DNA of 32,000 nt, taken from contig NC_014825.1 in the NCBI RefSeq assembly GCF_000179635.2, positions 90,001 to 122,000 of the forward strand. The letters run 5' to 3'. Of the stretch, positions 4,817 through 31,786 are shown piece by piece. Position 1 is the stretch's first letter, and the number at the start of each line of letters is the position of its first letter. The position numbers and the translations under genes were made by a program. The notes below the pieces were generated by a model, which saw nothing but the letters and a program-made list of their open reading frames with translations, did no database searches and was not told where the DNA came from. The DNA is from Ruminococcus albus 7 = DSM 20455 (GTDB lineage: Bacteria > Bacillota > Clostridia > Oscillospirales > Ruminococcaceae).

Positions 4817-4896
4817 TATATTAAGAATAAGTAATTTGCTGCAGATCCCATGTTTATTTACATTCGGGATCATAGTTTTATAAGGAGATGCGCTCG

Positions 4897-6654
4897 ATGG
4901 CTAATGAGAATTTTACTATACTTGATGGACAGCTTATATCATACAGTGGCCACGAAAGATCGGTGATCGTGCCTGAAGGAGTAAAAGTCATCAAAGAAGG
5001 TGCTTTCCTTGGATGCGTTCATATTGAGGAAGTTACCCTCCCCGAGGGTGTCATCACCATCAAGCCGAAAGCTTTTTGGGGATGTGTAGGTCTTAAACAT
5101 ATAAAACTGCCTTCCACGCTCTGCACCATTGAATTTTGTGCATTTCGTGAATGCGAATCTCTTGAAGAAATAGATGTCCCTGAGGGCGTGTTCTTTCTTG
5201 GTGACTCGGTATTCCAGGGCTGTGAAATGCTTCAGAGGGCTTATCTGCCTGATTCACTTACAGGTCTTGGCGCAAGTACTTTCTGTGATTGTCTGCATCT
5301 TACAGATGTTCACCTGCCCAAGAAGATCGACACTATCAGTACAGGATTCTTCCGCAACTGCGTTAATCTCAGACGTATCGAGATACCCGAAAATATAAAG
5401 GCACTGGAAGAAAATGCCTTCTTCGGCTGCACTGCACTTGAGGATATAAATCTCCCGAAAGATCTCCTAAGCATCGGCAATAGCTGCTTTGAGGGGTGCC
5501 GCAAGCTTATTAAGATCAGTGTTCCCGACACTATCGAGAGTATAGGTATCAATGCATTCAACAAGACCGGACTGATGATATTCTGCTTCTCCGACTTTCT
5601 TGTACTTGGCGGTATACTGGTAAGATATATGGGCAAGGACGATACTGCCGTTGTCCCCGACGGAGTCCGCTTCATAGGAGATCACGCATTTGCCTGCTGT
5701 GAAGAACTTAAAAACGTTGTTATACCTGCATCCGTTACAGATATACATGATTATGCATTTGAACATTGCAGCATACTTGAAAGCGTCACTCTGCCTGCAG
5801 GTCTTAAAAGCCTTGGCACAGGTGTGTTCATGGATTGTACTGCCCTCAAAAAGCTCAGGCTGCCGCCTGCATTAAACCGCATAGGTTCAAAGCTGTTAAA
5901 CAACACCGCGCTTGAAAAGTCCAATAATTCAGACACAATGATATTGGAGGGCAAGTATCTCATCACTTACACAGGCTCAGCTGACAAGTTCTTAGTTCCC
6001 GACGGCATTCAGGTCATAGCAGATGAAGCATTTGTTCAGTGCGGCGGTGTAAAGGAGATAACTTTCCCTTATGGTCTGCGCACCATCGGCAGCGGTGCGT
6101 TCCGCTGGAGGAATGAGCTGAAAAAAATAAGCATACCATCCACCGTTACTTATATAGGCGATAATGCTTTTGTCAACTGTAACGAGCCGGAAATAACTAT
6201 CATGAATCCCAAGGGCACACTTTGTGAAAACGGATTCCCTGATGGTTCACTGCTGACTTTCGTTGTCGGCAGCCACGTACTTAAAATACGTCTTGTATGG
6301 GAAGTCAAAGCAGGCGATTGTCCCGAAAGGCGGCTCTGGAACTTTGTATGTTCAAGAACGAAGGAAGCATTTGAAGACCTTCAATGGTCTGATTATGCCC
6401 TTCCCTGTGCTTTATGCTTCTATGAAACAGACAGCTGGTACAAAGATTACGTCACCGAGAATATCGTCGATGCTGTATGCTTTGCCGCAGAAGAAGGCGA
6501 TTATGCCCTTGAACGCGTCCTTTCATTCGGACTCTTATCAAAAGACCAGCTCCAGGACTGCATAAACTATGCTATCGAACACAAGCTGACACAGCAGCAG
6601 ATGATACTCCTCCGCTACCGTCAGGAGAATTTCGGCGGCGAAGGATCTGTCTGA
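4897..6654 (+). CDS. BspA-type leucine-rich-repeat (LRR_5-like) protein with a non-LRR C-terminal region and no signal peptide
   Basis: Many iterations of the roughly 23-aa pattern (I.IP.GV..Ig..AF.gC..L..i.lP). AAGGAG at 4882-4887 abuts the track ATG at 4888 with no spacer. ATG at 4897 (MANENF..) has 9-nt spacing and is the likelier start. Confidence 0.85.
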   Translation: MANENFTILDGQLISYSGHERSVIVPEGVKVIKEGAFLGCVHIEEVTLPEGVITIKPKAFWGCVGLKHIKLPSTLCTIEFCAFRECESLEEIDVPEGVFFLGDSVFQGCEMLQRAYLPDSLTGLGASTFCDCLHLTDVHLPKKIDTISTGFFRNCVNLRRIEIPENIKALEENAFFGCTALEDINLPKDLLSIGNSCFEGCRKLIKISVPDTIESIGINAFNKTGLMIFCFSDFLVLGGILVRYMGKDDTAVVPDGVRFIGDHAFACCEELKNVVIPASVTDIHDYAFEHCSILESVTLPAGLKSLGTGVFMDCTALKKLRLPPALNRIGSKLLNNTALEKSNNSDTMILEGKYLITYTGSADKFLVPDGIQVIADEAFVQCGGVKEITFPYGLRTIGSGAFRWRNELKKISIPSTVTYIGDNAFVNCNEPEITIMNPKGTLCENGFPDGSLLTFVVGSHVLKIRLVWEVKAGDCPERRLWNFVCSRTKEAFEDLQWSDYALPCALCFYETDSWYKDYVTENIVDAVCFAAEEGDYALERVLSFGLLSKDQLQDCINYAIEHKLTQQQMILLRYRQENFGGEGSV

Positions 6655-6891: not shown

Positions 6892-7683
6892 TCAGTATAT
6901 AGGCACATCAAAATTCTTTATCTTCTCAAAGAGTATATCTTCCTCCGAGGGTATATCCGCCGCCATCTCTATCTCGCTGCGAATACTCAGCATCTCGCGG
7001 TCTGTCTTTGATATGACCTCAGCACAGTCACGCAGCCTGTCAACGATCTCCTGCTCGTTCTCCACCGCCTGCTTGTATTTCAGCTGATGTTCAAGACTTG
7101 CCCAGAAATCCATAGCGATAGTCCTTATCTGTACCTCTACCCGCATATCGCGTTTTTCCTCAGCAAAAAATACAGGCACGCTGACTATCAGGTGCAGACT
7201 GCGGTAGCCGTTGGGCTTAGGTGAAGCTATGTAATCCTTGCGGGCGATCAGTGTGATATCATCCTGCTGGATCAGCGCATCTGCTATGGAGTAAATATCA
7301 TCTATGTATGCGCATATCACCCTTACTCCCGCCACATCGCTAAGGTTGTTCTCGATGTTCTCGGGTGTCATGGCAAGACCCTTTCTCTGCAGCTTTTCAG
7401 CGATGCTGGAAGTCCTTTTCAGACGTGTGCTTATGAATTCGATAGGGTTGCGTCTGTAACGCACATTGAACTCCGTGTTCAGCACATCGAACTTCGTCTT
7501 GACCTCCTTTATGGCGCAGGTGTACATCATCATAAGCTCCTTGTATTCCACCATAGTGCCAATGATCTGCTTTGTCTGAGAGTATACCATCCTCACTTCA
7601 TCGTTGCTTAGTGCAGGCAGCTCCAGATCAGGTGAATTCATCACCTCGCTGAAAATATCATCAAATCTCTGCTCACCGCTCAT
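6892..7683 (-). CDS. Small alarmone synthetase (RelQ/RelP-type GTP pyrophosphokinase, RelA_SpoT domain)
   Basis: 263-aa ORF with an AGGAGG RBS. Synthetase-domain motifs are GVRVICAYIDDIY, YRSLHLIVSVPV and VEVQIRTIAMDFWASLEHQLKYK. No hydrolase or regulatory domains are present. Confidence 0.9.
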   Translation of the reverse strand: MSGEQRFDDIFSEVMNSPDLELPALSNDEVRMVYSQTKQIIGTMVEYKELMMMYTCAIKEVKTKFDVLNTEFNVRYRRNPIEFISTRLKRTSSIAEKLQRKGLAMTPENIENNLSDVAGVRVICAYIDDIYSIADALIQQDDITLIARKDYIASPKPNGYRSLHLIVSVPVFFAEEKRDMRVEVQIRTIAMDFWASLEHQLKYKQAVENEQEIVDRLRDCAEVISKTDREMLSIRSEIEMAADIPSEEDILFEKIKNFDVPIY

Positions 7684-9162: not shown

Positions 9163-10287
9163 TTAAAGCTTAGTAAAGTTCATGCTTATTACCCAGTCCT
9201 GACCTGCATTGGCGTTCCAACACTCAGGATCTTCACCTTCAAGCCACAGACGAACAATGTATTTCTTCATCTGTCCATAAGAGGTTCCATCTGTACTTGC
9301 TGGGAGAGTAGCTATAACTGCTCCGTCAGTATACTTATCACTAGAAGCTACAGTTGTATATATTGTATCAGTCCCAAGTGTTCCAGCGCTGCTTACAGCA
9401 CCATCAGTAACAGCCGAACCTGCGGCGGTGTTCTTTTTATCGCCATACCAATCGAGTACAGATTTAGTCGTTAATGCATATGGATTCGCAACAGTCTGGC
9501 TATTTGTTGCATCCCAAGCATCCTGTAAATCGATAAGCTTTGTTAATCCTGCTGAAGCAGCATCAACATCATCGCCGCTTGCTCCGCTAGGAAGAATAGC
9601 AATTCGTGTTGCCTTGTAAAGCTCATCAGTAGCGCCTGTAGCCTGTGCAGTTTCACTATTAGGTATTACATAAGCATCTACCTTTAATGTAGCACCACTA
9701 GTAGATGATGTTCTGAGCCAAATCGGAATATCTACATAGTATCCATCATCCTGAGTTACATTATAAGCAGTAGAAGGTGTCGCTGTCCATGTATCAGATG
9801 CTACATTTGCGTGTAATTTGGCAGCAAGAGAAGCTCCTGTACCTGAATCAACGGTTGAATCAGCCAAGGCAGTTAACCCATTTGTAGCTGCATGGTACTC
9901 TGCTGTTCCCTTAACTGTTTTACCAACACCATCAGCATCAGGAGTGAAGTAGATATTTGAGCCATTCGTTGATGAAGCGGGAATTAATCTACCAAACTTA
10001 TAGTATGTTCCTATTTCAACGGAGTTAGACCAGTCAAGCATAGAGGTCTGATCATTTCCAGCAGCAGGTGCCTGTACTGCACCATCATCAGCTTTTGCAC
10101 CTTCTGTAGAGGAAGAAGGAGTGAGCGTTCCTGCATTAGCTGAAAGACCAGATTTTCCAGTCGCATTAACTGTTACACCAGAAAGATGTCCAAGAGAAAT
10201 CTGAATATCTTCAGGAACAGTTGCAGTCATCTTAATACCAGTAACTTCAACCTCACGGCTCATAGTGAACCATGCGTACATAGACAA
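9163..10287 (-). pseudogene. Secreted protein with a SipW-type (TasA/camelysin-class) signal-peptide motif, 5'-truncated
   Basis: The reading frame opens with ..SMYAWFTMSREVEVTG. That is the conserved end of SipW-dependent signal peptides, but the basic and hydrophobic parts are missing. The frame upstream reads *GLRRLVNCFV through repeat-element sequence. The only start is a TTG at 10287, exactly at the element boundary. The rest is Thr/Ser/Ala-rich and ends in ..YIVRLWLEGEDPECWNANAGQDW.. Confidence 0.6.
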
Positions 10288-10930
10288 TACAAAACAGTTG
10301 ACGAGCCTTCTAAGCCCCTATTATCAATGCTTTCCGAGCTTGAAAATGTCATTTTTCAAAACTCGATTTTCATGGTTGACATGGACTATTTTTTGCGTTT
10401 TTGAGGGTATTTCAACATAAAAGTTGACGCAAATCATCGGTCTGTATTACTCGTATTATATCACCATATAAGAATGCTGTTTTTTGAATATAAAAATATT
10501 AAACTTGATTTTTGGTAAGTACAAGGAGAATGGCAGTCCTATAAAATGTACAATTCAGCAATTAACATATTTTGTAATTTATCAAAAATCTATGATTTTT
10601 GTTGTAATCTTTTTTGTAAGGAGGTCGTCAACTGTTTTGTAAGGAGTTGGTCAACCGTTTTGTAAGCAGTCAATCAACCGTTTTGCACACACCATATTTT
10701 ACCTGTTGAATAGTGCTTGATATGGCACTTAATCAGTAGCTTAGACAAGATGTTCGCACCATGTTTCGATACACTGTTAAGTGATACTTTTGTCAACTTT
10801 TTCGTATGGAGTGAACTGTTTTATCTCATATAAACAGATGTGTTTTGGCTATACAAAAATATGGAACCGACATTTTGAGCTGTTTTTTCTGTCATCTGTT
10901 TTGTAAGGGGTTGGTCAATCGTTTTGTTCA
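10288..10930. mobile_element. Non-coding, repeat-bounded (MITE-like) element flanked by an 11-bp direct repeat
   Basis: TACATAGACAA occurs at 10277-10287 and again at 10931-10941. The inner termini are inverted: TACAAAACAGTTGAC (10288-10302) versus GTCAATCGTTTTGTTCA (10914-10930). The left part holds 3 dispersed GTTGAC-type sites (10288-10302, 10364-10380, 10413-10428). The right part holds tandem sites. It contains no ORF of useful length. Confidence 0.4.
10616..10684 (+). repeat. Three phased 23-bp tandem repeats (transposon-end-like binding-site array)
   Basis: GTAAGGAGGTCGTCAACTGTTTT (10616-10638), GTAAGGAGTTGGTCAACCGTTTT (10639-10661) and GTAAGCAGTCAATCAACCGTTTT (10662-10684), followed by GCACACA. 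Related units lie at 10791-10822, 10891-10930 and 15507-15555. Confidence 0.85.
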
Positions 10931-10964
10931 TACATAGACAAACACCCTTTTGCACAGCACTATA

Positions 10965-11960
10965 TTATTCTTTACAATCTGAATTATCTGAAAACAACTC
11001 ACCTATCTTATTCATAGCCTTCATGATTTTACTTTTTTCGATCTCATGCAGGTACACGGGATTTAGTCTTTTCTTTGAATAGCTAAGATAAGAATCTTTG
11101 GTTTCATCAATAAGCAAAGCAGTAAAATACTGTTCCCAGCTGAAATGCTTTTCACTCAGAATATGGTTCTCAGAATTTTCAAGAATTTCTTGAATGCGAG
11201 TTCCGTCGATCAACCCCGACTTCAAAATCAGCCACTCAAACGACTCGGGAAGATACAGAATAACATTGTCGGAATCCTGTATCAGCTTCATAACCCTGTC
11301 GATTTCCGAACCAAAAGCAGCCCCATCTGCAATGACAAGACACGTTTCCGAAGGATCATGTTCAAGAAGTTTTTTGAACACACCCGAGTTACCCTCGGCA
11401 CTAATAACAGCCGGCTTACCGTCAACCGCAAGTGCCGAAAAGAATTCATAGCCGGAATTTGTGTCCTCAACAAGCACTTTATCAATTTTGGCTTTTTCTA
11501 TCTCGCTGCCCCAGTGATATATTCGGTAAAACTCATTATAGACCTGTTTTAAGCCTGCATATTTGCCTGATTCTCTTATGCCGTAGATCTCATTCACGCT
11601 GTAAGGAAGATACGCAAGCCCCTCTCTTGTGACGATCACATAATAATTTGAACTGTGGCGTATCGCTTCAGCAAATTCAAGCGTTCTCAGAAAATCGTTA
11701 TCCTCGTCAATAAAAACGATACTGTTCTCTATCGAGGGCAGAATGTACTTCCAGTCACGCCCCGAAAGAGTTCTGCACGGCACACTCGATTCAAGCCGGA
11801 TACCGCTTAACTCTCCGTCTTCATAGTATTCCCGTATCATCTCAACAAGCGTGGTCTTGCCCGTTGCGCTGTTGCCTTTGAGAATAGTGATGTTTCTGCA
11901 AATCGTGAACTCATATCAGAGTCTGCTGTTGCCGACTCTGATAGTATAACTGCCCTTCAT
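10965..11960 (-). pseudogene. P-loop ATPase fused to a Toprim/DUF4435-like C-terminal domain; in-frame TGA at codon 15
   Basis: ATG at 11960 has a GAGGTGAG RBS. The frame reads MKGSYTIRVGNSRL-TGA(11918..11916)-YEFTICRNITILKGNSATGKTTLVEMIREYY.. and continues into the 291-aa track ORF. Walker A GNSATGKTT and Walker B SIVFIDEDN are present. The C-terminal half carries VEDTNSGYEFF, ISAEGNSGV and VIADGAAFG, resembling Toprim-like acidic/Gly motifs. Confidence 0.7.
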
Positions 11961-11964
11961 GCTC

Positions 11965-12170
11965 TCACCTCACGATCATTCCAGCAATCGGAATAAGCTC
12001 CTTCATGCTGTGAACCACCTGATCTGTATTCTGAATGTGAATATCAAAGCTGACCTCGCCAAAATCCATGATATGACGCAGATTGACCGTTATATCCTTT
12101 TTCTTGCCTATCTCCAGAAGCCACTCGGCGCAGTTATCACCGCACGCAGATGCATTAAAGATCTTGTCGG
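11965..12170 (-). pseudogene. 3' part of a roughly 146-aa gene encoding a small protein with an LSGG motif (DUF4869-like), split by IS21
   Basis: It encodes ..DKIFNASACGDNCAEWLLEIGKKKDITVNLRHIMDFGEVSFDIHIQNTDQVVHSMKELIPIAGMIVR*. Removing the IS and one GTCGG copy puts it in frame with 15129-15368. The stop at 11965-11967 lies 4 nt before the ATPase gene start. Confidence 0.7.
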
Positions 12171-12315
12171 TGATTATTTCGCCCCTTGGAACGCACCAAT
12201 CCGCAACAAGGAAAACGGTAATCCGAAACAAGGAACGCACCAATCCTAAACGAGGAACGCATCAATCCGCAGCAAGGAACGCACTTCCCGATGAGGTCAT
12301 ATCTGAATAAATGTT

Positions 12316-12385
12316 TTCACTGCTTCCGCTGGAATGGAGTGGGAACCACGAAGTGGTTCTGCGGAATGGAGGCGGAAGCAGTGAA
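12316..12385 (-). terminator. Long perfect hairpin inside the IS21 end, downstream of the IS operon
   Basis: TTCACTGCTTCCGC (12316-12329) pairs perfectly with GCGGAAGCAGTGAA (12372-12385), 14 bp. The loop holds a nested hairpin, GGAACCAC/GTGGTTC (12342-12359), flanked by two GGAATGGAG direct repeats. A terminator role is an inference. Confidence 0.4.
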
Positions 12386-12468
12386 CACGGCGGCGCGTCT
12401 CGCCGGTTCTCTCCGCAGTGAGCTCATCTGAAACTATCAGACAGGCTCATGCCAAATGCGAACGCTGC

Positions 12469-12663
12469 TCACATTTCAGGATAATCAATGTTATTTTTGT
12501 CCAAGATGGATCTGAGCTCGTCAATGTACGCATACAGCCTCTGAATCTCGATCCAGTTGCCGTGACAAAGGCGGTCAGCCTCTTCCAGTTCGTGGCGGGT
12601 CAGCTCATAATCCTCCCATTTCAGGCATTTGTGATCCTTGCTGAAAGCGCAATAATCTTCCAT
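12469..12663 (-). CDS. Hypothetical 64-aa Cys/His-containing protein, third ORF of the IS21 element
   Basis: Its ATG (12663..12661) shares its A with the istB stop (TAATG overlap). The product is MEDYCAFSKDHKCLKWEDYELTRHELEEADRLCHGNWIEIQRLYAYIDELRSILDKNNIDYPEM. I recognise no family. Confidence 0.4.
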   Translation of the reverse strand: MEDYCAFSKDHKCLKWEDYELTRHELEEADRLCHGNWIEIQRLYAYIDELRSILDKNNIDYPEM

Positions 12664-13409
12664 TATGACTCTGCCCCCTTTGCCTGCAATTCACGCATAT
12701 TGATGTCACCGGAGTACACCCACGCAGCAGTATGTACGATCCTGTCCATGATTGCATCAGCGTGGATACCGCCGCCAAGTCGGCTGTGCCAGTCCTCGCG
12801 CTTGTACTGCGTACAGAAGATCGTGGAGGTGCAGTCATATCGGCGTTCAATCAGCTCGAAGATGAAATGCTGTTCGCTCTCCGTCATATCATTCAGCAGC
12901 CATTCGTCAAGGATCAGCAGCCGGTATCCGCTGAACTTTTTGAGGAGCTTGGCTCTGCCGTGTACATCAAGCGATGCCTCACTAAGTAGCTGCATCAGAT
13001 CGGGAACACGGATATATCTTGTGCGGTATCCCTGCATACAAGCCTGTCTGCCAATGGCACACGCTAGGTAACTCTTGCCGGAACCAGTGAACCCATTGAA
13101 TACGACCGGCTGGTTCTTTTCGATGGAACCGCAGCTTCCGAGTGTTAGGATCAGATCCTTGTCCAATCCGCGCTTTTCATAATACACATTCACAAGCGCC
13201 GCATCTGCAATACGGAACTTGGCTGCACTGATCAGGCGGTGAACCTTGGCATTGTACTTGGCTGAATAGGTGTAATCGACAGCAAGATTCATGCGGTCAT
13301 CAAATGAAAGCGCCATATATTCCGGCTGCTTCTCCTGAAGATCAAGAGCTTCGACCAACTCGCCGAAGTTCATCTCACGCAGCTTGCGTCTCGTCTCTTC
13401 ACTCAGCAT
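12663..13409 (-). CDS. istB: IS21-family transposition helper ATPase IstB
   Basis: The start is taken at ATG 13409 (MLSEETRRKL..) with a GGAGGTGA RBS, overlapping the istA end. Walker A GFTGSGKSYLA and Walker B LLILDEW. The longer track ORF start (13559) lies inside istA. Confidence 0.9.
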   Translation of the reverse strand: MLSEETRRKLREMNFGELVEALDLQEKQPEYMALSFDDRMNLAVDYTYSAKYNAKVHRLISAAKFRIADAALVNVYYEKRGLDKDLILTLGSCGSIEKNQPVVFNGFTGSGKSYLACAIGRQACMQGYRTRYIRVPDLMQLLSEASLDVHGRAKLLKKFSGYRLLILDEWLLNDMTESEQHFIFELIERRYDCTSTIFCTQYKREDWHSRLGGGIHADAIMDRIVHTAAWVYSGDINMRELQAKGAES

Positions 13410-14958
13410 GATCGTCACCTCCGTAATAGGCAGCACCGCGCACAAATCCGGCGGGCGACGATTCGTTCTCCTGTTTCTTGCTCTCCTTGTATTCCATATC
13501 CTGACCGGCGGCAAGGATCGCTCTGAGATGCGAATAGCGAGGCACGCTGACGTGTTCAAGTGCCAGCTCGCAAGCCGTTTCCAAACGCTCGGAGGAGTAT
13601 TTCTTGCTCAGCTTCAGCACGGACATTGCGGGATTGATGCCCTGTTCTGACGTGCGGTAGCTCTTGAAAATACGGTCAATGACTGCCAGTGTCAGCTTGC
13701 CGATGGATGCTGCCCACTGCCGGATCGTAAGCTCGTTCCATTCTGTTTTCTGGAAACGTTCGGGAATATCTTCGGGATAGGTGTCGTACCTGTTGCGGAC
13801 ATAACTCGGGAAACGCTTGTGGGAGGAGATACGTTCATGTCCGCAGTAGATCTCGATCATGCTGTCAGTGATCTTCAAGTCAACCGTCTTGCCGACAAAA
13901 CGATACGGCACGGAATACTTGCAGGTCTGGTAGGTCACATGAAAATCTGCACCGATGACACGCCCGTATTCCCAAACAGCATACTCATATGGAAAGGCAG
14001 GCAGCGGACGAAGCGTAATGCGTTCATTTGCTTCAAACACCTCACGGCGGCTGCCCTCACGCTTCTGGAAAGGCTTGTTGTTGAAATCCTCAAGCGCGGC
14101 AGCAACATCTGTCTTCAGATCATGGATAGAGGTATACTCGTTGTTGCGCAGACGAGCGATGATGGCGGTAGCGATCTTTCCGACAGTACCCTCAACAGAT
14201 GCCTTCTGCTTCGGCTTTTTCACGCCTGCGGGCATGATTGCCGTGCAGTAGTGATTGGAAAAATCTTCATAGCACTGGTTCAGAACGATGTCGCCCTCAT
14301 GGGGGTGTGTGATCACACCGGTCTTGAGATTGTCGCAAACAATACGCAGCGTCACGCCGCCGAAATACTCAAACATATGGATATTGCAATTGATCCATGT
14401 CTGCTCATTCATGTTCAGGCAGGGTTCTACATACGCAAGCTGGCTGTACGGAAGCGCTGCGACAAAGAGATAGACCGGATGTGTCTTACCCTCTTCGGGA
14501 TCGTTCAGCCTCATCGTTTTGCCGCTCCAGTCCACCTCACACACAACACCAGGCTTGTGCGTGAGGTGGTTCGTGAGATTGTTCTGCTCGACATACTTGG
14601 CGTAATCGTCACAGAATTTCGTGTAGCCGACAGGAACGCCGTCCTTTGCACTGTCTTTGTACTCGTGCCAAAGCAGCTTGAGCGTGACTCCCGTCTTTTT
14701 CAGCTCACCATGAACATACTCATAGTTGACAGGGGCGTATACCGTCTCCTTGCGAAACTTGTCCGGGAAGAAGAGCAGATAGACCTCATCGTCACTCTTG
14801 TCTGCAACATCAGCGTAGCTGACACCGAGAGCATCTGCTCTCTTCCATACTGCTGCCACAGACTTGGTTGAAATATGCCTAGATGCTGCGATAGCTCTCT
14901 GCGACATATTTGCCTGCCGAAGCTCAAGAACGAGCTTCACATTGATCTTGTCCGCCAT
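13399..14958 (-). CDS. istA: IS21-family DDE transposase IstA
   Basis: The start is taken at ATG 14958 (MADKINVKL..) with an AAGGAGG RBS 7 nt upstream. N-terminal HTH (MSQRAIAASRHISTKSV). Catalytic-core motifs include VCEVDWSG and RIVCDNLKTGV. Size and istA-istB overlap are typical of the family. Confidence 0.9.
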   Translation of the reverse strand: MADKINVKLVLELRQANMSQRAIAASRHISTKSVAAVWKRADALGVSYADVADKSDDEVYLLFFPDKFRKETVYAPVNYEYVHGELKKTGVTLKLLWHEYKDSAKDGVPVGYTKFCDDYAKYVEQNNLTNHLTHKPGVVCEVDWSGKTMRLNDPEEGKTHPVYLFVAALPYSQLAYVEPCLNMNEQTWINCNIHMFEYFGGVTLRIVCDNLKTGVITHPHEGDIVLNQCYEDFSNHYCTAIMPAGVKKPKQKASVEGTVGKIATAIIARLRNNEYTSIHDLKTDVAAALEDFNNKPFQKREGSRREVFEANERITLRPLPAFPYEYAVWEYGRVIGADFHVTYQTCKYSVPYRFVGKTVDLKITDSMIEIYCGHERISSHKRFPSYVRNRYDTYPEDIPERFQKTEWNELTIRQWAASIGKLTLAVIDRIFKSYRTSEQGINPAMSVLKLSKKYSSERLETACELALEHVSVPRYSHLRAILAAGQDMEYKESKKQENESSPAGFVRGAAYYGGDDHAE

Positions 14959-15125
14959 ATTTATGGCCTCCTTCATGTATATTCGAGGCATAGCCTCTAC
15001 CTATATTATACACGAAGTGCGTTCCTTGCGCGAATTACTGCGTTCCTTGTGCGGTTTGGCGTTTTCCTTGCCGTGGATCGATGTTTTCCTTCCGGCGGAT
15101 TGATGTTTTCCGGAGCGCGGAATAA

Positions 15126-15368
15126 TCAGTCGGGGCAATTGTTGATAAGAATGAGCGTTTTCACGCCGCCCGAAAGCTCTTTTGGAGTGATCGCACCAAG
15201 AACAGGACTGTCGATCACCCGTTCACTTATGACGGTTGAACGGTCAACAGCCTGAATCATTTTACGGGATAATTCATCTGTTATCCATTCGTCTTCATAT
15301 GTGTTTTTGAAGTACACCGCAGGGTTTGTGACTACACCTGCGTGATCGCCAAATATAATGTTCAGCAT
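15126..15368 (-). pseudogene. 5' part of the small LSGG-motif (DUF4869-like) gene, ended by a stop codon created by the IS21 end
   Basis: MLNIIFGDHAGVVTNPAVYFKNTYEDEWITDELSRKMIQAVDRSTVISERVIDSPVLGAITPKELSGGVKTLILINNCPD, then a TGA that lies within the IS21 terminus (15126-15128). Confidence 0.7.
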
Positions 15369-15506: not shown

Positions 15507-15555
15507 GGTCAACTTTTTTGTAAGGAGTTTGTCAACTGTTTTGTTTGTTTGCACA
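15507..15555 (+). repeat. Orphan repeat-array end of the same family as 10616-10684
   Basis: GGTCAACTTTTTT, GTAAGGAGTTTGTCAACTGTTTT (15520-15542) and GTTTGTTTGCACA. GTCAACTGTTTTGT (15531-15544) is the exact reverse complement of 10289-10302. Confidence 0.7.
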
Positions 15556-15716: not shown

Positions 15717-16067
15717 ATGATTTTCCTAACAGGAAAGTGGGAGGACACCGACCGCCTGTTCACCACATGGGACGGTAAGCCGATGCACGTCACTTCGCCC
15801 GCGGATTATTTCAAGGAGTTCTGCAAAAAGAACGATCTAAGATATTGCAGCCCTCACAGCTGGAGGCACTTACACGCTACAATAATGATCGAGAGCGGTA
15901 TCGACGTTAAAACTGTTCAGGCGTGCTTAGGACATTCAGCGGCCACGACAACTTTATCCTGCTACTTGCATACATTCCAGTCGGCGCAGGCAGCCGCTAT
16001 GGACGCGGTAGGTGTTGCGATACGAAACTTCACCAAGCCGCAGCAGGATACGGCAGGCGGTCTATGA
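15717..16067 (+). pseudogene. C-terminal remnant of a tyrosine (phage-type) integrase
   Basis: Only about 116 codons, preceded by an in-frame TGA at 15711-15713. It contains the C-terminal catalytic region HSWRHLHAT (HxxR), LGHS and the terminal Tyr region TTLSCYLH. The N-terminal SAM-like domain and first catalytic Arg region are absent. Confidence 0.75.
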
Positions 16068-16186: not shown

Positions 16187-16240
16187 CTCCCCCTGTTGGA
16201 CTCGAACCAACGACCCTGCGGTTAACAGCCGCATGCTCTA
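16187..16240 (-). tRNA. tRNA-Asn (anticodon GTT) 3' fragment; the 5' roughly 20 nt are missing
   Basis: The reverse complement reads TAGAGC-A-TGCGG-CTGTTAA-CCGCA-GGGTC-GTTGG-TTCGAGT-CCAAC-AGGGGGA-G. That is the D-stem 3' half, anticodon arm, variable loop, T arm with TTCGAGT, and the acceptor 3' strand. No matching TCCCCCT acceptor 5' strand or D-loop follows. Similarity stops at 16240/16241. Confidence 0.75.
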
Positions 16241-16330
16241 GCTCTTTTGATTATTCATAACGCAAATTCACAGCTTTTTAATAGACCTGCCTTTCGGTCA
16301 AGTCTATGCGAAAAATATCAAAATATTAAA

Positions 16331-17935
16331 CTAAGCATTGATCGTACTTTTGCTGTTCAGCGTGTCCCAATTATCACAAAATTCCTGATAGTCCATATTG
16401 AGCGTGACCTTTATCTTGTAGCCCTTATAGACCTCTATCCTGCTCACCAGCTGAGAGATGATCATTTTCTTCTTTTCAATGGTGCTTTCATCGAATTCCT
16501 TTGCCCAGCCCGCAAATATCTCGAACATGGGCTTCACGCTCTCCATCGCCTTCTTCTTACCGGTCATTTCCGATTTAAGAGTTTCTATCGCGGTCTTGGT
16601 CTCGGCGATATTTTCCTCGGTGCTTTTGATGACCTTGCTGAGAAGATCGGGCGAAAATCTGCTGTTACCCATAAGGCTGTCAGCGACCTCCGATTCCAGC
16701 TTTTCAAGCTGCTGCGCCTGCTTTTCAGCCTCACGATTCAGCTTCGTGATCTTTGCACGATAACTTGTCATCTCCTTGTCGAAGTTCTTTTTGAGTACGG
16801 CTTCGTCGGGAGATTCTTTTATGCCTGCAAACATATCGTGTATCAGTTCACACACCGCGTCGTCTATTCTTTTCACCTGATATGTAGTCGAACCGCTGCA
16901 CTGACAAAGCCCTCTGCTTTTATGATAGCAGACATATTTAGGCTGAACCTTCACATATTCCGTGCCGTCCTGCCTTGTGTGCCTGTCGATATGCTTCTGC
17001 GTACTCAAATGACCTCCGCAATGACCGCACACCATAATTCCCGAAAGAAGCTGCTGCGTCTGGGTCTTGCGGGCGATCTCACGGGTCTCCTCGTTCTTTT
17101 TCATTCGCTGTTCGAGTATCTTCTGCGCCCGTTCAAAGGTAGTCATATCAATTATCTGCAGATCCTTTAAATGCGGCGATTCGGTATCACCCGAAACCAC
17201 ATATCCCGTGAGCAGCCTGTTCCTCAAAATGCGGTTGATACTGTTGCTCGTGAACCTTGAACCCTTGTGAGTTTTCACTCCGTTCTTGTTCAGAAGCTCG
17301 GCACATCTGAAGGTACCATATCCCTCATTCACGGTCTTAGAGAATATCTCCCTTACCCAATCGGCTTCGACGGGATCGACCGCCAGATCATGCACTTCCC
17401 TGCCCTTTTTGTTAAGCCTTCCGGTATTCACAAGAGTATATCCGAAGGGTACGGGACCGCCTGTATAACTGCCCTCTGCTTTGAGCTGCTGCATACGGGT
17501 CTTTATTCGCATCGAAGTCTTTTCACTCTCACCCGACGCCTGCCAGAACCTTATGTAGTTCATCAGCTTGTCAACGTGGCTTTCAAACCTCTGCTCACCC
17601 TCCTGAACGCTCCATACTCTTATTCCCTGTTTGACGAACCATTCTACTATGAACGGTGTTTCGTCGTCTATTCTTCCGATACGGTCGAACATGAAAACAA
17701 GAAGTATATCAAACTCTTTGTTGAGAGCCGCAGCTTTTAAGTCCTGTATAGCATCACGATTGCTTGCCGAAACCTTGAAACCCGACACACCCTTTTCAAG
17801 AAACTCCTTGCCGATAGTCCAGCCCATTTTCTCGGCGAACTCGTGGCAGGCTTCTCTCTGCATAGGTATATCATCCTTGGTCTTATCGACCTGCTGCTTG
17901 GTGGATACTCTGTATAATGTATAAACTGTGTTCAT
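16331..17935 (-). CDS. Large serine recombinase (resolvase domain, recombinase domain, zinc ribbon, coiled coil)
   Basis: 534-aa ORF with a GGAGG RBS. N-terminal catalytic motif YRVSTKQQ. Cys cluster CGHCGG...C..C. Long C-terminal coiled-coil-like region. Confidence 0.9.
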   Translation of the reverse strand: MNTVYTLYRVSTKQQVDKTKDDIPMQREACHEFAEKMGWTIGKEFLEKGVSGFKVSASNRDAIQDLKAAALNKEFDILLVFMFDRIGRIDDETPFIVEWFVKQGIRVWSVQEGEQRFESHVDKLMNYIRFWQASGESEKTSMRIKTRMQQLKAEGSYTGGPVPFGYTLVNTGRLNKKGREVHDLAVDPVEADWVREIFSKTVNEGYGTFRCAELLNKNGVKTHKGSRFTSNSINRILRNRLLTGYVVSGDTESPHLKDLQIIDMTTFERAQKILEQRMKKNEETREIARKTQTQQLLSGIMVCGHCGGHLSTQKHIDRHTRQDGTEYVKVQPKYVCYHKSRGLCQCSGSTTYQVKRIDDAVCELIHDMFAGIKESPDEAVLKKNFDKEMTSYRAKITKLNREAEKQAQQLEKLESEVADSLMGNSRFSPDLLSKVIKSTEENIAETKTAIETLKSEMTGKKKAMESVKPMFEIFAGWAKEFDESTIEKKKMIISQLVSRIEVYKGYKIKVTLNMDYQEFCDNWDTLNSKSTINA

Positions 17936-25966: not shown

Positions 25967-26971
25967 TTATCCTAGTGAATCCAAGAAGGAAATCAAATCG
26001 TCCTTTTCTTTGTCTGAAAAGAAATCAAGGCTTTCTGATACTGTTTTCTCAGCTACTGTCTCGATAGCCTTTCTGATAACTTCCGGATTCGTTGACAGGT
26101 AAATCTGAGTTGTTGCAACAGACTCATGTCCCAAGAAATCCCTGACATTATAAATGTTTACGCCATTGTCCACAAGGTGTGTGGCTTTACTGTGGCGTAA
26201 TCGATGTGGGTATACAGAGCCGGTTATAATACCGGGAACCGTATCGTTTGCCAACTTAGAGTATTTCCTTATTATGTAGCGGATGCCTTGCCTTGTTAGC
26301 CGGTCACCATTCCTGTTGCAAAACATTGGGGACTCTTGCATAAGACCGAATTGCCTGATATATTTTGAGATGATTTTTTCTGTTTTTCCCAGTAACGGAA
26401 TGGTGCGATATTTATTTCCCTTACCATGCACATATATCCTGCAGCATTGACCCGGCTGAAAGTCTTTGACATCTAGTGAAATGATTTCCTGAACCCTACA
26501 AGCTGAATCGTACATAAGGGATAAGATTGCCAAATGCCTTAGTCCCTCGTTAGATGATGAGTCGATCGATGAAAGCATTTGCTTTATAGCATCCGTAGAC
26601 ATACAATCAGGAAGCCTTTTATCTTCCTTTGCAAATGGTATACTGAGTATTTCGCTGCATTGCCCGGAGTATTCAGGTGAGATCATCATTACATATCGAA
26701 AAAATGATTTTATATGTGCCAATCTTACATTTTGGGTAGGCACCCCATTTTTCCTGACATTCGAAAGCCAAGAGAGAAACTTGAGTACTACATCGCAGTC
26801 AATCTCATCAACAGTTTTCTTTGATATGCTTTTACCGGATTCTGACATAAATTTAAGCAAAAGCTTAAAGGTGTCTCGGTATGATGAAACAGTATTAGGG
26901 CCGTAATTATGCTGTTTCATTAGGTAAGACATAAAATATCGTTGTATATAGAAGAATAAATTATCACTCAT
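25967..26971 (-). CDS. Tyrosine recombinase, third gene of the trio
   Basis: 334 aa. The catalytic region is ACRVQE (Arg I region), HRLRHSKATH (HxxR), LGHESVATTQIYL (His and Tyr). The start overlaps the stop of the upstream gene by 8 nt. Confidence 0.85.
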   Translation of the reverse strand: MSDNLFFYIQRYFMSYLMKQHNYGPNTVSSYRDTFKLLLKFMSESGKSISKKTVDEIDCDVVLKFLSWLSNVRKNGVPTQNVRLAHIKSFFRYVMMISPEYSGQCSEILSIPFAKEDKRLPDCMSTDAIKQMLSSIDSSSNEGLRHLAILSLMYDSACRVQEIISLDVKDFQPGQCCRIYVHGKGNKYRTIPLLGKTEKIISKYIRQFGLMQESPMFCNRNGDRLTRQGIRYIIRKYSKLANDTVPGIITGSVYPHRLRHSKATHLVDNGVNIYNVRDFLGHESVATTQIYLSTNPEVIRKAIETVAEKTVSESLDFFSDKEKDDLISFLDSLG

Positions 26972-27944
26972 TGTCCACCTCCGGGAATAGACTCCCCAAG
27001 GATGATTCTTTCTGCAAGAAATCCGTATGTCCCTGTTCTGTGAAATGAATGTATTTTTCTGTATCTATGTAATTCACATGTCCGACGTATGCCGCCAGTA
27101 TTGGAATAGCAGTATAGACATTCATTCCGTTTTCCAACATTTTTTCCAGACTTTTGGTGCAGAATGTATGCCGGATAGAATGGATATTTGGCGTCTTACC
27201 ATCTGACTTGTGTATGCCTGCCGTCTTAAACATCTTTGGAAACATATATTTCATAGCATCATATGTAAGATGACCACCGGTGTAGGAGGAAGTGAAAAAC
27301 GGTCTATTCTCATCAGACATATCTATAGTCTTGGCATAGTCAAATAGGACTTCTTTCAAGCTGTCGGATACAGGAATAAATCTTGAAACGCCATTTTTAC
27401 CGTTGATAACATTGATCACACCGTTTGAAGTGTCAACATTCGCCCGCTTCAGTGCAAGGACTTCGCCTATGCGCATTCCGGTACCTATAAGTAATCTGAC
27501 GAGCACTGGGTATATCTGCTGATGCGAGCTCGACTTTCTTGATGCAGGAAGCGTGTCGGCTGCAATAGTCAGACGGCGCAGTTCATCGTCGCTGAAAATG
27601 TACGGACGAAATTCACTCTTTACCGTTCGCATATATTTTCGTGGGACGATGACCGCATCAATTCCGAGAAGCGCCAAGAAAGAACAAAACTGGCGGAGAT
27701 TCGCTGTAAGATATTGGCGTTCTAATTCGCTTAATCCATCACGAGGAGCCAGTAACTCCTCCACCATCTGGTCAGATATATGGTGTTCATAGTAAGTATT
27801 AAGCGAATTGTTCAGTTTCCTTAAGCGAACCATGGTTGAATGAGCAACTTTTTCACCTTTTCCACGCTTGAACTCTATGAATTTTTCAAAATATGGTTTG
27901 AAAAAACCTTCTTCAAATTTAAGAAATTCCTTGTCATTGATCAT
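26964..27944 (-). CDS. Tyrosine recombinase, second gene of the trio
   Basis: 326 aa. GMRIGEVLAL (Arg I), HSIRHTFCT (HxxR), VGHVNYIDTEKYIH (His and Tyr). ATGA overlap with the upstream gene. Confidence 0.85.
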   Translation of the reverse strand: MINDKEFLKFEEGFFKPYFEKFIEFKRGKGEKVAHSTMVRLRKLNNSLNTYYEHHISDQMVEELLAPRDGLSELERQYLTANLRQFCSFLALLGIDAVIVPRKYMRTVKSEFRPYIFSDDELRRLTIAADTLPASRKSSSHQQIYPVLVRLLIGTGMRIGEVLALKRANVDTSNGVINVINGKNGVSRFIPVSDSLKEVLFDYAKTIDMSDENRPFFTSSYTGGHLTYDAMKYMFPKMFKTAGIHKSDGKTPNIHSIRHTFCTKSLEKMLENGMNVYTAIPILAAYVGHVNYIDTEKYIHFTEQGHTDFLQKESSLGSLFPEVDNE

Positions 27945-29173
27945 TTTTTAGGCACCTCCAATGCTGCTGCTCGGAGATGCTCTATATCTGACCATACATA
28001 AGTTTTTGTGGATGCCGCAGATGTGTGTCCAAGTATCACAGCAATCTCATTTATCGGGGTTCCTGAAACCAAAAGGTTTGTTGCCAAACTATGCCTTAAA
28101 GAATGCAGACCATGATGTTTACCTTTTGTATCAACACCGGCAATTTCAAAAAACGGTAATATCTTGTCGCCAAAGTGATCATTCATTGAGTATGCAATGT
28201 ACGGTTTTCTAAGTCGGATGAACACATTCGAACAGTCTGACTCAGGACGCACATTCTTAATATAGTCAAGGAGTGCAAAAAGGATCTCATCTGTCATGGG
28301 AAGGGAAATCTCTTTGTGCGTCTTGTACTGCGTGATATTTATTGTGCGATTTTTCCAGTTTATATTGTCAAGAACCATTGCTTTGATATCGCTTGAGCGA
28401 AAACCGTACACACTTGCCAAAAGCATCATAAGATAGACTGTTTTTCCCCATGGGGTATTCCTGTCGACAGCATTCAGGATACGCCTTACTTCTTCTGCCG
28501 TGTAAAAGGATGGGAGTCTTTCATGCTTTCCGGAATGAATCCCTGTCAAAAAGGGAATCGGATCGAAAGATAGCGCTCCTGAGAACTCATCATAGGAAAA
28601 GAAATTCCTTAACGTATACAAAATGGACGCTTTTCCCTGTGATGAATACCTATCATTGAGGGACGATACAAATCTTGCAAACAGCTCCGGCGTGATGCCC
28701 TCTAATGATGTACATTTACACTCCTCAAGAAAAGCAAAAAACACAGTGATTCGTCCGGATCTCGTGCGTACTGTGCCATCGCTCTTTTGGTCATTTCTCA
28801 TGAAAGTTTCATATTTTCTGATGACATTCAGGTACGTAATGGGACAATCACGCTTATGGGTGGTATACTTTCTCTTAGGTTCTTTTCCATTAAGGATATC
28901 CAGAATCATCTGAACAGCTCTTCCTCGACGTTCTTTTGATTTTGACGGAACAGCTTCAAATGCAGGGACCCCGACGATAATACGATAGTATTCTTGGATC
29001 ACATCTTCCGGAGAAACCTCCAAATCCGTTTCTTTAGCATACCGCTGTAAATCATTAGAGATCCGAATGTAAGCCTGTGCTGTTTTGGATTCAGATCCGC
29101 AGTTTTGTATGATGTGTCTTTGAAACAGTTGGATTGCATCATACAGTGTCATTGAGTAACTGGAATCAATCAT
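27941..29173 (-). CDS. Tyrosine recombinase, first and largest gene of the trio
   Basis: 410 aa. GFRSSDIKAM (Arg I), HSLRHSLAT (HxxR), LGHTSAASTKTYVW (His and Tyr). GGAGG lies 10 nt upstream of the ATG. Confidence 0.85.
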   Translation of the reverse strand: MIDSSYSMTLYDAIQLFQRHIIQNCGSESKTAQAYIRISNDLQRYAKETDLEVSPEDVIQEYYRIIVGVPAFEAVPSKSKERRGRAVQMILDILNGKEPKRKYTTHKRDCPITYLNVIRKYETFMRNDQKSDGTVRTRSGRITVFFAFLEECKCTSLEGITPELFARFVSSLNDRYSSQGKASILYTLRNFFSYDEFSGALSFDPIPFLTGIHSGKHERLPSFYTAEEVRRILNAVDRNTPWGKTVYLMMLLASVYGFRSSDIKAMVLDNINWKNRTINITQYKTHKEISLPMTDEILFALLDYIKNVRPESDCSNVFIRLRKPYIAYSMNDHFGDKILPFFEIAGVDTKGKHHGLHSLRHSLATNLLVSGTPINEIAVILGHTSAASTKTYVWSDIEHLRAAALEVPKK

Positions 29174-30190: not shown

Positions 30191-31786
30191 TCATATTGCT
30201 TTACAGATTTTCTGCACAGATTCGTTCCAAGGCAGGAGTTCTTCCAGAATATCCGGATTTGTCAGGAACGCCATGCTTGGCAGTACAGTGAGAAGCAGTT
30301 CAAAATATTTGAACACATCAAGTCCGTTTGCCTTAGCAGTTTCAACGATGCTGTAGATATCAGCACTTGCTTTAGCTCCTTTAGGCGTGTCACTGAAAAG
30401 CCAGTTTTTTCTGCCGACCGTAAAAGGTCTGATAGCATTTTCGGCGGCATTGTTCGAGATCGCACAGTCACCGTCTTTGAAGTAGTTTCCGAGAAATTCC
30501 CGTCTCTTGAAAGCATATTCAAATGCCTTTCCAAGCTGCGTTTTCGGAAGAACTGTCGGTGCTATCTTTTCAGCCCATGACCAGAAAGCCTCAAACACAG
30601 GCTTTTCCTGCGTCAGACGCTTATTAAAACGTTCTTCGGTTGTAAGTCTGTCAAGTTCCGCCTCTATCGCAAACAGCTTGTCGCAGAAGTCTCTGCCTGT
30701 CCTGGCTATGCTGTCTTCGTTGTCCACGACAATGGCTTCGTGGAACTTTCTGCGAACATGAGCCCAGCAATTGCAGTGCGTGACTTTTGTGAGTTTGTTG
30801 TAGCCCGCATAACCGTCTGTGTGAAGGTATCCGCTGAAGTCTCCGAGAAATGCTTTCGGCACATCTCCTGATCTCGATTTATTGTAATCATAGATCACTA
30901 TCTGTCTTGCGGAAAGCTTGCCTGTGCGGTATCCCCACATATACTGCTTGCTGTTGTCGGAAACATCTTTTTCCCTGAGAACTTTGACGTAAGTCTCATC
31001 GCAGTGCAGAACTTTTTCTTTCAGCATTTCCTCTTTCAGTCTTGCGACAAATCGGCTGAAATAATCCTCGCTGCACCTGATGATCCAGTTTGCCATTGTT
31101 GTTCTTGAAAGCGCATATCCAAGGCGTTCCCAGTCCTTTTCCTGACGATACAGCGGCATTGCGTTGACATACTTCTGGTAGATCACCCATGATACTGTTG
31201 ATGCTGATGCAAGCGAATGCGGCAGCACAGGTGCAGGCACAAGTCCGTGAAGAAATACGGGCATATTCTTTTTCTCACATTTCTTGCAGCTGTATGTATT
31301 GCTGTAATACTTCTTTACGATCAGCTTTGCAGGTATCAGTTCAACTTCTTCACGAATGTATTTCTTGCCGATGGCCTTCATCTGTGAACCGCAGCGAGGG
31401 CATATCTGCTCGTTTTCCGGAACAGTGCAGGTGATGATCTCAGTATCGATATTCTTAATGATCTCATCACGCCTGGTCTTTGAGCTTTTTCTGACATAGC
31501 CCTTGACGGTCTTTTTTACAGGTTCTTCGGGATTTTCAGCGTATTCCTGTTCTGCTTCGTTGAAGAAGGATTGCTGTCCTTCGTCTACTGTATGCTCGCT
31601 CGATTTCCCGAATATTCGATGTTTGGAGAGTATCAGTGCTTCCAGGTAGATATGATTGTCCTTTCGGAGGCACTCATTCTCTACTTCTAATTTATCAATT
31701 TTCTTGTCACGTTTTTTGATCTCGTTTTCAAGCATAGCGATGTATTCTGCGTCAGTCATATTGCCTTTCTCTATCACCGTACTCAC
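30191..31786 (-). CDS. IS66-family transposase (single-ORF, ISBst12-like organisation)
   Basis: 531 aa. N-terminal coiled coil, zinc-finger CPRCG...CKKC, and the family hallmark CNCWAHVRRKF. No tnpA or tnpB-like ORFs are adjacent. The element ends could not be located. Confidence 0.9.
   Translation of the reverse strand: MSTVIEKGNMTDAEYIAMLENEIKKRDKKIDKLEVENECLRKDNHIYLEALILSKHRIFGKSSEHTVDEGQQSFFNEAEQEYAENPEEPVKKTVKGYVRKSSKTRRDEIIKNIDTEIITCTVPENEQICPRCGSQMKAIGKKYIREEVELIPAKLIVKKYYSNTYSCKKCEKKNMPVFLHGLVPAPVLPHSLASASTVSWVIYQKYVNAMPLYRQEKDWERLGYALSRTTMANWIIRCSEDYFSRFVARLKEEMLKEKVLHCDETYVKVLREKDVSDNSKQYMWGYRTGKLSARQIVIYDYNKSRSGDVPKAFLGDFSGYLHTDGYAGYNKLTKVTHCNCWAHVRRKFHEAIVVDNEDSIARTGRDFCDKLFAIEAELDRLTTEERFNKRLTQEKPVFEAFWSWAEKIAPTVLPKTQLGKAFEYAFKRREFLGNYFKDGDCAISNNAAENAIRPFTVGRKNWLFSDTPKGAKASADIYSIVETAKANGLDVFKYFELLLTVLPSMAFLTNPDILEELLPWNESVQKICKAI

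Follow-up and report, generated by a model that had tools for sequence, protein, structure and literature searches.

Among the described systems, those closest to the locus treated here are the OLD nucleases and PARIS. In OLD proteins (P2 Old and TsOLD, with Gabija GajA as Class 2) a complete ATPase of the ATP-binding cassette (ABC) type is followed, in a single chain of about 500-650 amino acids (aa), by a C-terminal metal-dependent beta-alpha nuclease domain of the Toprim type, while PARIS keeps a full ABC ATPase, AriA, and a DUF4435/Toprim effector, AriB, in two separate genes. Two reports describe P2 Old and PARIS AriB as tRNA-cleaving abortive effectors (PMC12445682, PMC11464382). We analysed a stretch of 32,000 nucleotides (nt) of Ruminococcus albus 7 = DSM 20455, called the window below, which carries on its minus strand a cassette of two genes: gene A, for a protein of 146 residues with an LSGG motif, and gene B, 331 codons long, for an ATPase core joined to a C-terminal domain. 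The pair is most likely to be classed as a new variant, in split form, of the theme in which an ABC ATPase is combined with a Toprim-type nuclease, and by every model tested it falls outside OLD, PARIS, Septu and Gabija.

The likeness to OLD lies in the domain order predicted for gene B, an N-terminal ABC-type ATPase followed by a C-terminal nuclease. The gene B protein is, however, only about 325 aa, its ATPase core is only about 140 aa with neither dimerisation insert nor signature motif, and the signature resides on a separate, obligatory 146-aa protein. With PARIS the cassette shares the two-gene module of ABC-ATPase elements and a Toprim-like effector, and the gating of a nuclease by an ATPase is a plausible parallel. 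Where PARIS separates a full ABC ATPase from the nuclease, the cassette fuses the P-loop half to the nuclease-like domain and leaves only a degenerate head apart. The original prediction had pointed to OLD and PARIS; taken as family membership, this likeness is not supported by any hidden Markov model (HMM). On gene B, AAA_15 and AAA_21 stayed below threshold and covered the P-loop only, no OLD model passed, and AriA matched only locally at the P-loop (expect value, E, of 0.0085, residues 18-50); AriB and DUF4435 gave no match.

Both genes had to be reconstructed in the window (Table 1). Gene A is split by an insertion sequence (IS), and when this element and one copy of the GTCGG that flanks it are removed in silico, an open reading frame (ORF) of 146 codons appears, MLNIIFGD...AGMIVR, just as had been proposed. 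The gene B start codon lies 4 nt past the gene A stop, and the translation confirms the Walker A, Walker B and C-terminal motifs that had been read in its 331 codons. Thousands of homologues were found for each reconstructed protein, 6,689 for gene A (E<=1e-3) and 5,296 among 8,000 candidates scored for gene B (E<=1e-3), which places the reconstructed frames far beyond chance.

The two genes stand side by side on the same strand in all 88 loci examined, A before B in 85 and B before A in 3, which bears out the expectation of a conserved pair. The gaps between them are mostly -50 to +49 nt, and overlaps of 4 nt are common. In one locus of a Mitsuokella metagenome-assembled genome (MAG; L061, 8404-9986) about 1.6 kb lies between A and B. 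No conserved third gene was found when 1,103 neighbouring proteins were clustered; the top neighbour family occurs in 14 loci, usually outside the three nearest genes. The 446-aa protein P0015 is not an A-B fusion; it is homologous to gene B, with a stretch of about 120 residues duplicated internally in tandem. Clustered at 90% identity, each of the two proteins gives over 5,000 clusters; the carriers are mainly Clostridia of the human gut and the rumen. In a scan of genome collections, relatives of gene B were present in at least 479 species representatives, mostly Clostridia (Lachnospiraceae, Ruminococcus), with others in Treponema, Selenomonas, Dialister, Mitsuokella, Phascolarctobacterium, Erysipelotrichaceae and one actinobacterial MAG. 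The spread across Firmicutes, Negativicutes and Treponema is patchy.

Gene A belongs to the Pfam family DUF4869 (PF16163), as had been suggested; residues 14-140 of the reconstruction score 200.6 bits (E=9e-60) against a gathering score of 28.9 bits, and searches of NCBIfam, PADLOC, PHROGs and PDB sequences gave nothing beyond DUF4869. An AlphaFold2 (AF2) model of the R. albus protein P0130, made with 70 homologues, reached a predicted local distance difference test (pLDDT) score of 95.6 and a predicted template modelling (pTM) score of 0.90. It consists of a strand, a degenerate loop, helices, a small antiparallel sheet, the LSGG helix, a KIFNAS strand, a helix and a strand leading to R-H. 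At least 45 of its 50 best Foldseek matches in the PDB are ABC-type nucleotide-binding domains (NBDs), among them the SMC head 1e69 (probability 0.94, 145 columns), the Septu PtuA chains 8ee4, 8eea and 8sux, cohesin SMC3, and P-glycoprotein and other transporter NBDs; these matches are statistically weak, the best E-value being 8e-3 with a TM score of about 0.44 and the typical one about 1e-2. The model superposes on the SMC head and the PtuA chains, yet gene A is about one third of their size and has no coiled-coil or dimerisation insert. No sequence-profile link to PtuA or SMC was found, and hhalign aligned gene A with an ABC_tran protein over 15 columns only, around LSGG.

The most conserved parts of gene A are SPVLGxITPxELSGGVKTL, CGDNC and LRH. 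L65-S66-G67, G89-D90 and R110-H111 are invariant and G68 nearly so, and with a mean column identity of 86% across genera the protein is more conserved than that of gene B. Read directly from the sequence, the distance from LSGG to the KIFNAS strand is 16 residues, the canonical ABC spacing. A Walker A motif is missing: there is no GK[ST], and the N-terminal loop FGDxxxxxxN has neither Lys nor Thr. At the position of Walker B, KIFNAS stands in place of hhhhDE and holds no acidic residue. As modelled, DUF4869 appears to be a miniature degenerate ABC-ATPase head which keeps LSGG, a D-loop-like GD and an H-loop-like RH and has lost Walker A and B. Beyond the ABC-like motifs, the invariant C88 and C92 (of CGDNC), H111 and H132 (window codons of the same numbers) are candidates for a metal site or for part of an active centre.

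Gene B was modelled through P0002, a 92%-identical R. albus protein, in AF2 with 116 sequences (pLDDT 85, pTM 0.84). Its P-loop domain spans codons 1 to about 145 and its C-domain with a helical tail codons ~155-331, with a linker of low confidence at residues 143-151. In the N-domain (residues 1-140) the model shows an ABC-type N-terminal hairpin, the P-loop with a long helix, the Walker-B strand and a strand ending in T-R-E. Among 77 representatives, whose identity to the first is roughly 30-48%, K35, E86, R112, D166, E238 and E241 are among the residues that never vary, and E165, D211-G212, W274-E275, Y293 and K295 are near-invariant. Instead of LSGG, gene B has LxGRDW at the signature position, 14 residues ahead of Walker B. 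Judged by the model, the N-domain is a minimal ABC-like Walker A/B domain with a degenerate signature position. Its sub-threshold matches are local to the P-loop (AAA_14, nSTAND3, ABC_tran, AAA_15, AAA_21, AAA_23 and SMC_N, with PtuA and AriA in PADLOC). Public records often misname the protein 'translation initiation factor 2'.

The C-domain of gene B is modelled as four beta-alpha units with the helical tail. E165 and D166 follow strand 1, D211-G-A with its single Asp ends strand 3, and the invariant E238 and E241 come after strand 4. The Toprim fold is characterised by a Glu after strand 1, a DxD after strand 3 and a four-stranded beta-alpha core. When the gene B model was compared with BFVD by Foldseek, the sole match below 1e-3 was a giant-virus 'ATP-dependent endonuclease' (E=1.5e-4, 312 columns), a predicted and not a solved structure; the third-ranked match carries the same name, and a MutS-type ABC ATPase was matched with a probability of 0.99. 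In a permissive Pfam scan OLD-like_TOPRIM (PF20469) weakly matched 2 of 27 C-domains (E=0.026), as one of two families with more than one match, and it was not listed for 45 other C-domain fragments. We counted the topology with its invariant acids at the strand ends, the BFVD match and the weak PF20469 match in favour of an OLD-like nuclease, and on this modelling a Toprim-type C-domain is plausible.

Naming the C-domain by sequence gave little. The C-terminal half had no match in single-protein scans of Pfam, NCBIfam, PADLOC and PHROGs or with Pfam on 77 diverse full-length members, Pfam and PADLOC on sets of C-domains alone failed or were marginal, and a PDB profile search with gene B came back empty. 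A C-domain profile found 1,564 proteins (E<=1e-3) among 1.84 billion representatives; in all of the 150 matches listed this C-domain recurs in an identical position, though about half are short fragments, so the family is closed at the sensitivity of HMMER, with no bridge to a named family. The Toprim domain of P2 Old itself finds no solved OLD structure in the PDB by phmmer, which means that sequence tests for Toprim have little power here. A homologue search from P2 Old for an OLD Toprim profile yielded 4 fragments only, and a viral scan for Old gave only close relatives.

The degeneracy of the two proteins is complementary, and from this we infer a head-to-tail heterodimer with one competent ATP site. 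That LSGG and P-loop would belong to different chains had been claimed before the modelling, and the ABC-like fold of gene A backs the claim, at the weak E-values given above. The explanation we favour, at somewhat short of an even chance, is that the cassette is a self-contained, two-subunit, ATP-gated nuclease of the OLD/PARIS-like kind acting against phages or other mobile DNA, of which the window holds a decayed copy. Gene B would contribute Walker A, Walker B and the catalytic Glu in a minimal ABC-like core, fused to a metal-dependent, Toprim-like nuclease domain, and gene A, as a degenerate 146-residue head, would supply LSGG, GD and RH. What the analysis shows is the pairing of the genes, their modelled folds, the way in which their motif losses complement each other and the accessory status described below. 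Starting from these, A and B probably dimerise head to tail through a composite site, so that one site would be competent (Walker A/B of gene B with LSGG of gene A) and the other dead. The binding and hydrolysis of ATP at the single composite site would then gate the putative nuclease activity. An invading phage or other foreign DNA would provide the cue that releases it, as in OLD, PARIS and Gabija, and this would give the cassette its role in defence.

Asymmetric pairs of ABC NBDs are found in TmrAB, TM287/288 and CFTR, which have one consensus and one degenerate ATP site. The pairing proposed here would follow the same logic, two subunits building a consensus and a degenerate site. In those proteins, however, both NBDs are full-length and bind nucleotide, whereas the partners of the cassette have each lost a complementary half of the motifs and one is fused to a nuclease-like domain. 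If the split site is real, this would be the smallest known ABC-ATPase-gated nuclease and a natural experiment on how signature and P-loop cooperate across subunits; if the defence reading holds, the gut Firmicutes, whose immune repertoire is poorly charted, would gain a further defence or conflict module. The family is abundant, unnamed in the literature searched and experimentally tractable.

Several results weigh against an OLD-like defence nuclease. In gene B the canonical DxD of Toprim is replaced by D-G-A. The whole gene B model gave no PDB match with E<=1e-3 in Foldseek, and no Toprim, OLD, GajA or AriB chain was in the top 50. Alignment of gene B with P2 Old by hhalign (single sequence and a small profile, with an effective number of sequences of 4.9) reached a probability of about 1%, and the models for Toprim, DUF4435, OLD, AriA/AriB and GajA were not significant on either protein. 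On the Toprim/DUF4435 domain suggested in the original prediction the results divide: the four-unit topology, the strand-end acids and the BFVD match speak for Toprim, but neither profiles nor PDB folds confirmed it and DUF4435 was not matched at all. No paper mentioning DUF4869 or PF16163 was found in the literature searched, and no experiment on it exists.

The genomic context points the same way. Among the 148 immediate neighbours at 78 loci, which match 155 Pfam families, most are housekeeping proteins such as Hsp33, tRNA synthetases, UvrB, transporters and regulators, and no more than about 5% resemble defence proteins (PglZ twice, ResIII/SNF2 four times, DpdE/ZorD-like and AAA-ATPase_like twice each). 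The pair occurs in 5 loci among the 2.9 million viral contigs of IMG/VR, in phage records as 5 virome fragments, and on plasmids in 2 large non-mobilisable replicons. An enrichment in defence islands or prophages had been expected and did not appear: none was clear among the 148 immediate neighbours and in IMG/VR, judged without a formal background comparison. Furthermore, a report on the archaeal Cran1 assigns this OLD-like protein a role in the cell cycle (PMC12796447), and an OLD-like architecture is no proof of a defence role. Solitary placement outside defence islands is also seen for class 1 OLD genes (PMC10568477). Some loci do adjoin BREX PglZ, GmrSD, methyltransferase or SNF2 genes, and in one from Lachnospiraceae both an N6 methyltransferase and GmrSD are encoded within 9 kb.

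The presence of the cassette varies within a species. We queried metagenomes with the right junction of the [Lactobacillus] rogosae locus L084 and obtained 48 human-gut contigs (L112-L159). At this site 18 alleles are empty, with a single copy of a 49-nt sequence; the occupied ones, at least 21 in number, exceed them in length by exactly 1,643 bp. The empty junction reads ...AATTAT[49 nt]AGTTTATAA and the occupied one ...AATTAT[49 nt]GGCTTGTAG...cassette...AAATAGCA[49 nt]AGTTTATAA. Of the occupied alleles, 17 are fully covered, 13 of them intact and 4 broken; gene A is frameshifted in L114 and L128, possibly through assembly errors, and gene B is truncated in L131 and L132. Gene B is also broken in L072, L075 and L111. 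In another abundant species the pair occupies one fixed chromosomal site between housekeeping genes in 8 of 8 contexts, and one MAG holds two divergent paralogous copies, about 67% identical. Cassettes more than 95% identical always have the same flanks, and those 76-82% identical have unrelated ones. The cassette is dispensable; over evolutionary time it comes and goes as a whole, and it is not an IS that jumps actively. The empty alleles and frequent broken copies agree with the earlier view of it as an accessory, decay-prone system. Empty and occupied alleles, broken copies, patchy spread and paralogues were counted as behaviour typical of defence genes. The polymorphism also offers ready-made isogenic comparisons, and it raises the question of how a cassette with no integrase inserts with long target duplications.

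The double knock-out in the window is one instance of this general tendency to decay. That both genes are separately inactivated had been noticed at the outset, and the comparison with an intact, 92%-identical R. albus homologue agrees, as it reads AGA (Arg) at codon 15 of gene B where the window has TGA. Going by its sequence, the window copy is dead twice, through the insertion in gene A and the nonsense codon in gene B, and non-functional. The inserted element belongs to the IS21 family, with IstA and IstB, inverted ends (TGATTATT... and ...AATAATCA), multiple sub-terminal repeats of 22 nt and a short target duplication all present.

Table 1. Features of the cassette and of the inserted element; positions refer to the whole window.
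Feature	Position	Strand	Remarks
Region homologous to intact R. albus locus L001	10855..15676	minus	85% at the nucleotide level, IS excluded
Upstream 43-nt direct repeat	15508..15550		two 23-nt units (GTCAACTTTTTTGTAAGGAGT...); brackets cassette
Gene A (DUF4869), 5' part	15134..15368	minus	codons 1-78 and first base of codon 79; from translation
LSGG of gene A	15165-15176	minus	from translation
Target duplication GTCGG	12166-12170 and 15129-15133		5 bp, on both sides of IS
IS21-family element	12171-15128	minus	2,958 bp; splits gene A
IstA, intact, IstA-like	13399-14991	minus	Mu-transpos_C_2 above cut-off, rve match sub-threshold
IstB	12663-13409	minus	IstB_IS21, E=8e-42
Gene A, 3' part	11965..12170	minus	TGA stop at 11965-11967; holds KIFNAS (degenerate, Walker-B-like), CGDNC and RH
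Gene B	10965..11960	minus	ATG at 11960; 331 codons and stop; P-loop domain and C-domain; pseudogene in window
Nonsense TGA, codon 15 of gene B	11916-11918	minus	only in-frame stop
Walker A of gene B, GNSATGKTT	11850-11876	minus	Lys invariant in 77 diverse homologues
Walker B of gene B, IVFIDE	11703-11720	minus	Glu invariant
Conserved acidic core of gene B C-domain	11232..11471	minus	four motifs
VEDTNSG	11451-11471	minus	gene B
AEGNSG	11382-11399	minus	gene B
IADGAAFG	11310-11333	minus	gene B
PESFEW	11232-11249	minus	gene B
Downstream copy of bracketing direct repeat	10891..10933		further 23-nt units at 10604-10692 and 10792-10812

The sequences that bracket the cassette bear on a first alternative, in which the cassette is selfish and gene B, as an ATP-dependent enzyme of the Toprim or resolvase-like kind, would cut or recombine DNA together with gene A and so insert or home the unit of 1.5-1.6 kb without any separate integrase. 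We searched 71 loci for exact direct repeats of at least 14 nt shared by the 350 nt upstream of A and the 250 nt downstream of B, and found them at 7, as compared to none of 71 in each of two controls (inverted and mismatched). The repeats copy the local target sequence and differ between loci. In L035 the repeat is 46 nt of the 3' end of the gene for transfer-messenger RNA (tmRNA), with a decayed distal copy, and in L084 it is a 49-nt stretch lying within the 3' end of the gene upstream; the others measure 29 nt (L076), 33 nt (L082), at least 68 nt (L074) and 101 nt (L036). Between the repeats there are only A and B, with no recombinase, integrase or transposase, in units of 1,495-2,217 bp. 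In the window the unit from repeat to repeat is 1,654 bp when the IS and one copy of the 5-bp duplication (together 2,963 bp) are left out, and the intact cassette of the R. albus locus L001 is bracketed likewise by related repeats of 23-nt units.

These target-derived repeats around A and B alone, and the clean polymorphism with its 49-bp duplication, are what a selfish unit would leave behind. However, the flanking repeats are present at only about 10% of the loci, and their lengths vary, unlike the fixed duplications made by transposases. The ends of the cassette share no conserved termini or inverted repeats across loci, and near-identical copies keep their flanks, with no sign of recent jumping; on these two grounds jumping in the manner of an IS was rejected. 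The divergence of the two copies in one genome and the single site in 8 of 8 contexts also speak against it, and we regard a selfish cassette as rather improbable.

The 23-nt unit of the window, GTCAACTGTTTTGTAAGGAGT, forms tandem arrays downstream of gene B, with two units upstream of gene A. It has five matches in the window at <=3 mismatches, where 0 are expected, and is absent from the other loci by exact pattern. It may be an operator or iteron, an insertion target, or a species-specific intergenic repeat.

Integrase-less islets flanked by attachment (att) sites and mobilisable in cis are described as cis-mobilisable elements (CIMEs). The cassette resembles them in having no recombinase and in lying between direct repeats derived from the 3' end of a gene, either for tmRNA or for a protein. 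It differs in measuring only 1.5-1.6 kb and in holding the same two genes at many targets, and an origin as CIMEs would need repeated, near-identical decay. A wider generalisation, which we put forward as doubtful though possible, would be that DUF4869 and its partner are a class of OLD-like systems with one ABC ATP site split over two polypeptides, travelling without an integrase at gene 3' ends as a 1.5-1.6-kb cassette with duplications of 29-101 bp, and kept as a presence/absence allele in gut populations.

The pair could also be an addiction module of the toxin-antitoxin or stress kind, with gene B as a toxic ATPase-nuclease, gene A as its neutraliser and no dedicated role against phages. 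The tight operon with a small first gene and often overlapping stop and start codons, the frequent inactivated alleles and the stand-alone insertion among housekeeping genes would suit such a module. Gene A is, however, not a typical labile antitoxin but a well-folded ABC-like domain with an invariant ATP-site signature, conserved more than gene B, and the gene order is reversed in 3 loci. In L114 and L128 a broken gene A appears to be tolerated with an intact gene B, which argues against a strict dependence on an antitoxin, provided that the frameshifts are not assembly errors. We consider this explanation improbable.

Least probable is a dispensable cellular factor for nucleic-acid processing or repair, for instance an ATP-dependent Toprim RNase or DNase like RNase M5 or RecF/RecR, in place of a conflict system. 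For it, the high conservation of gene A across genera, the fixed position in one abundant species, neighbours such as tRNA synthetases, UvrB and Hsp33, a single weak match to DUF4093 (RNase M5 C-terminal) among the gene B C-domain fragments and the cell-cycle role assigned to Cran1 are set against the coexistence of empty and occupied alleles within one species, the frequent pseudogenes, a patchy spread that crosses phyla and a genomic setting in which neither a partner nor an operon is conserved.

No RNA element was recognised by Rfam within the cassette or next to it. In the window the cassette region is followed directly by an ORF of 374 aa (9163-10287, minus strand), rich in Thr, Ser and Ala and with no Pfam match. 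In L001 (1-9164) a giant ORF of more than 3,400 aa, also with no Pfam match, immediately precedes the intact cassette, and IS66 TnpB-like genes lie downstream of it.

A partial tRNA (16195-16243, minus), a 3' half with a GTT (Asn-like) anticodon loop that scores 28.7 bits in Rfam against a cut-off of 29, lies just upstream of the cassette in the window. Its direct neighbours, at 15717-16067 (plus) and 16331-17935 (minus), are a truncated piece of a tyrosine integrase and a gene for a large serine recombinase, and the partial tRNA looks like the att remnant of an integrated element. Further away, at 25967-29173 (minus), a row of three ORFs (334, 326 and 410 aa) that overlap one another, with tyrosine recombinases as the first and the last, shows a 'recombinase in trio' layout and is followed by an IS66 transposase at 30191-31786. 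On the other side, a lone RelA_SpoT-domain protein of 263 aa (6892-7683, minus; E=3e-34) is a candidate small alarmone synthetase, possibly a toxin of the toxSAS type, and lies near a BspA-type leucine-rich repeat protein (4888-6654) and an alpha/beta hydrolase.

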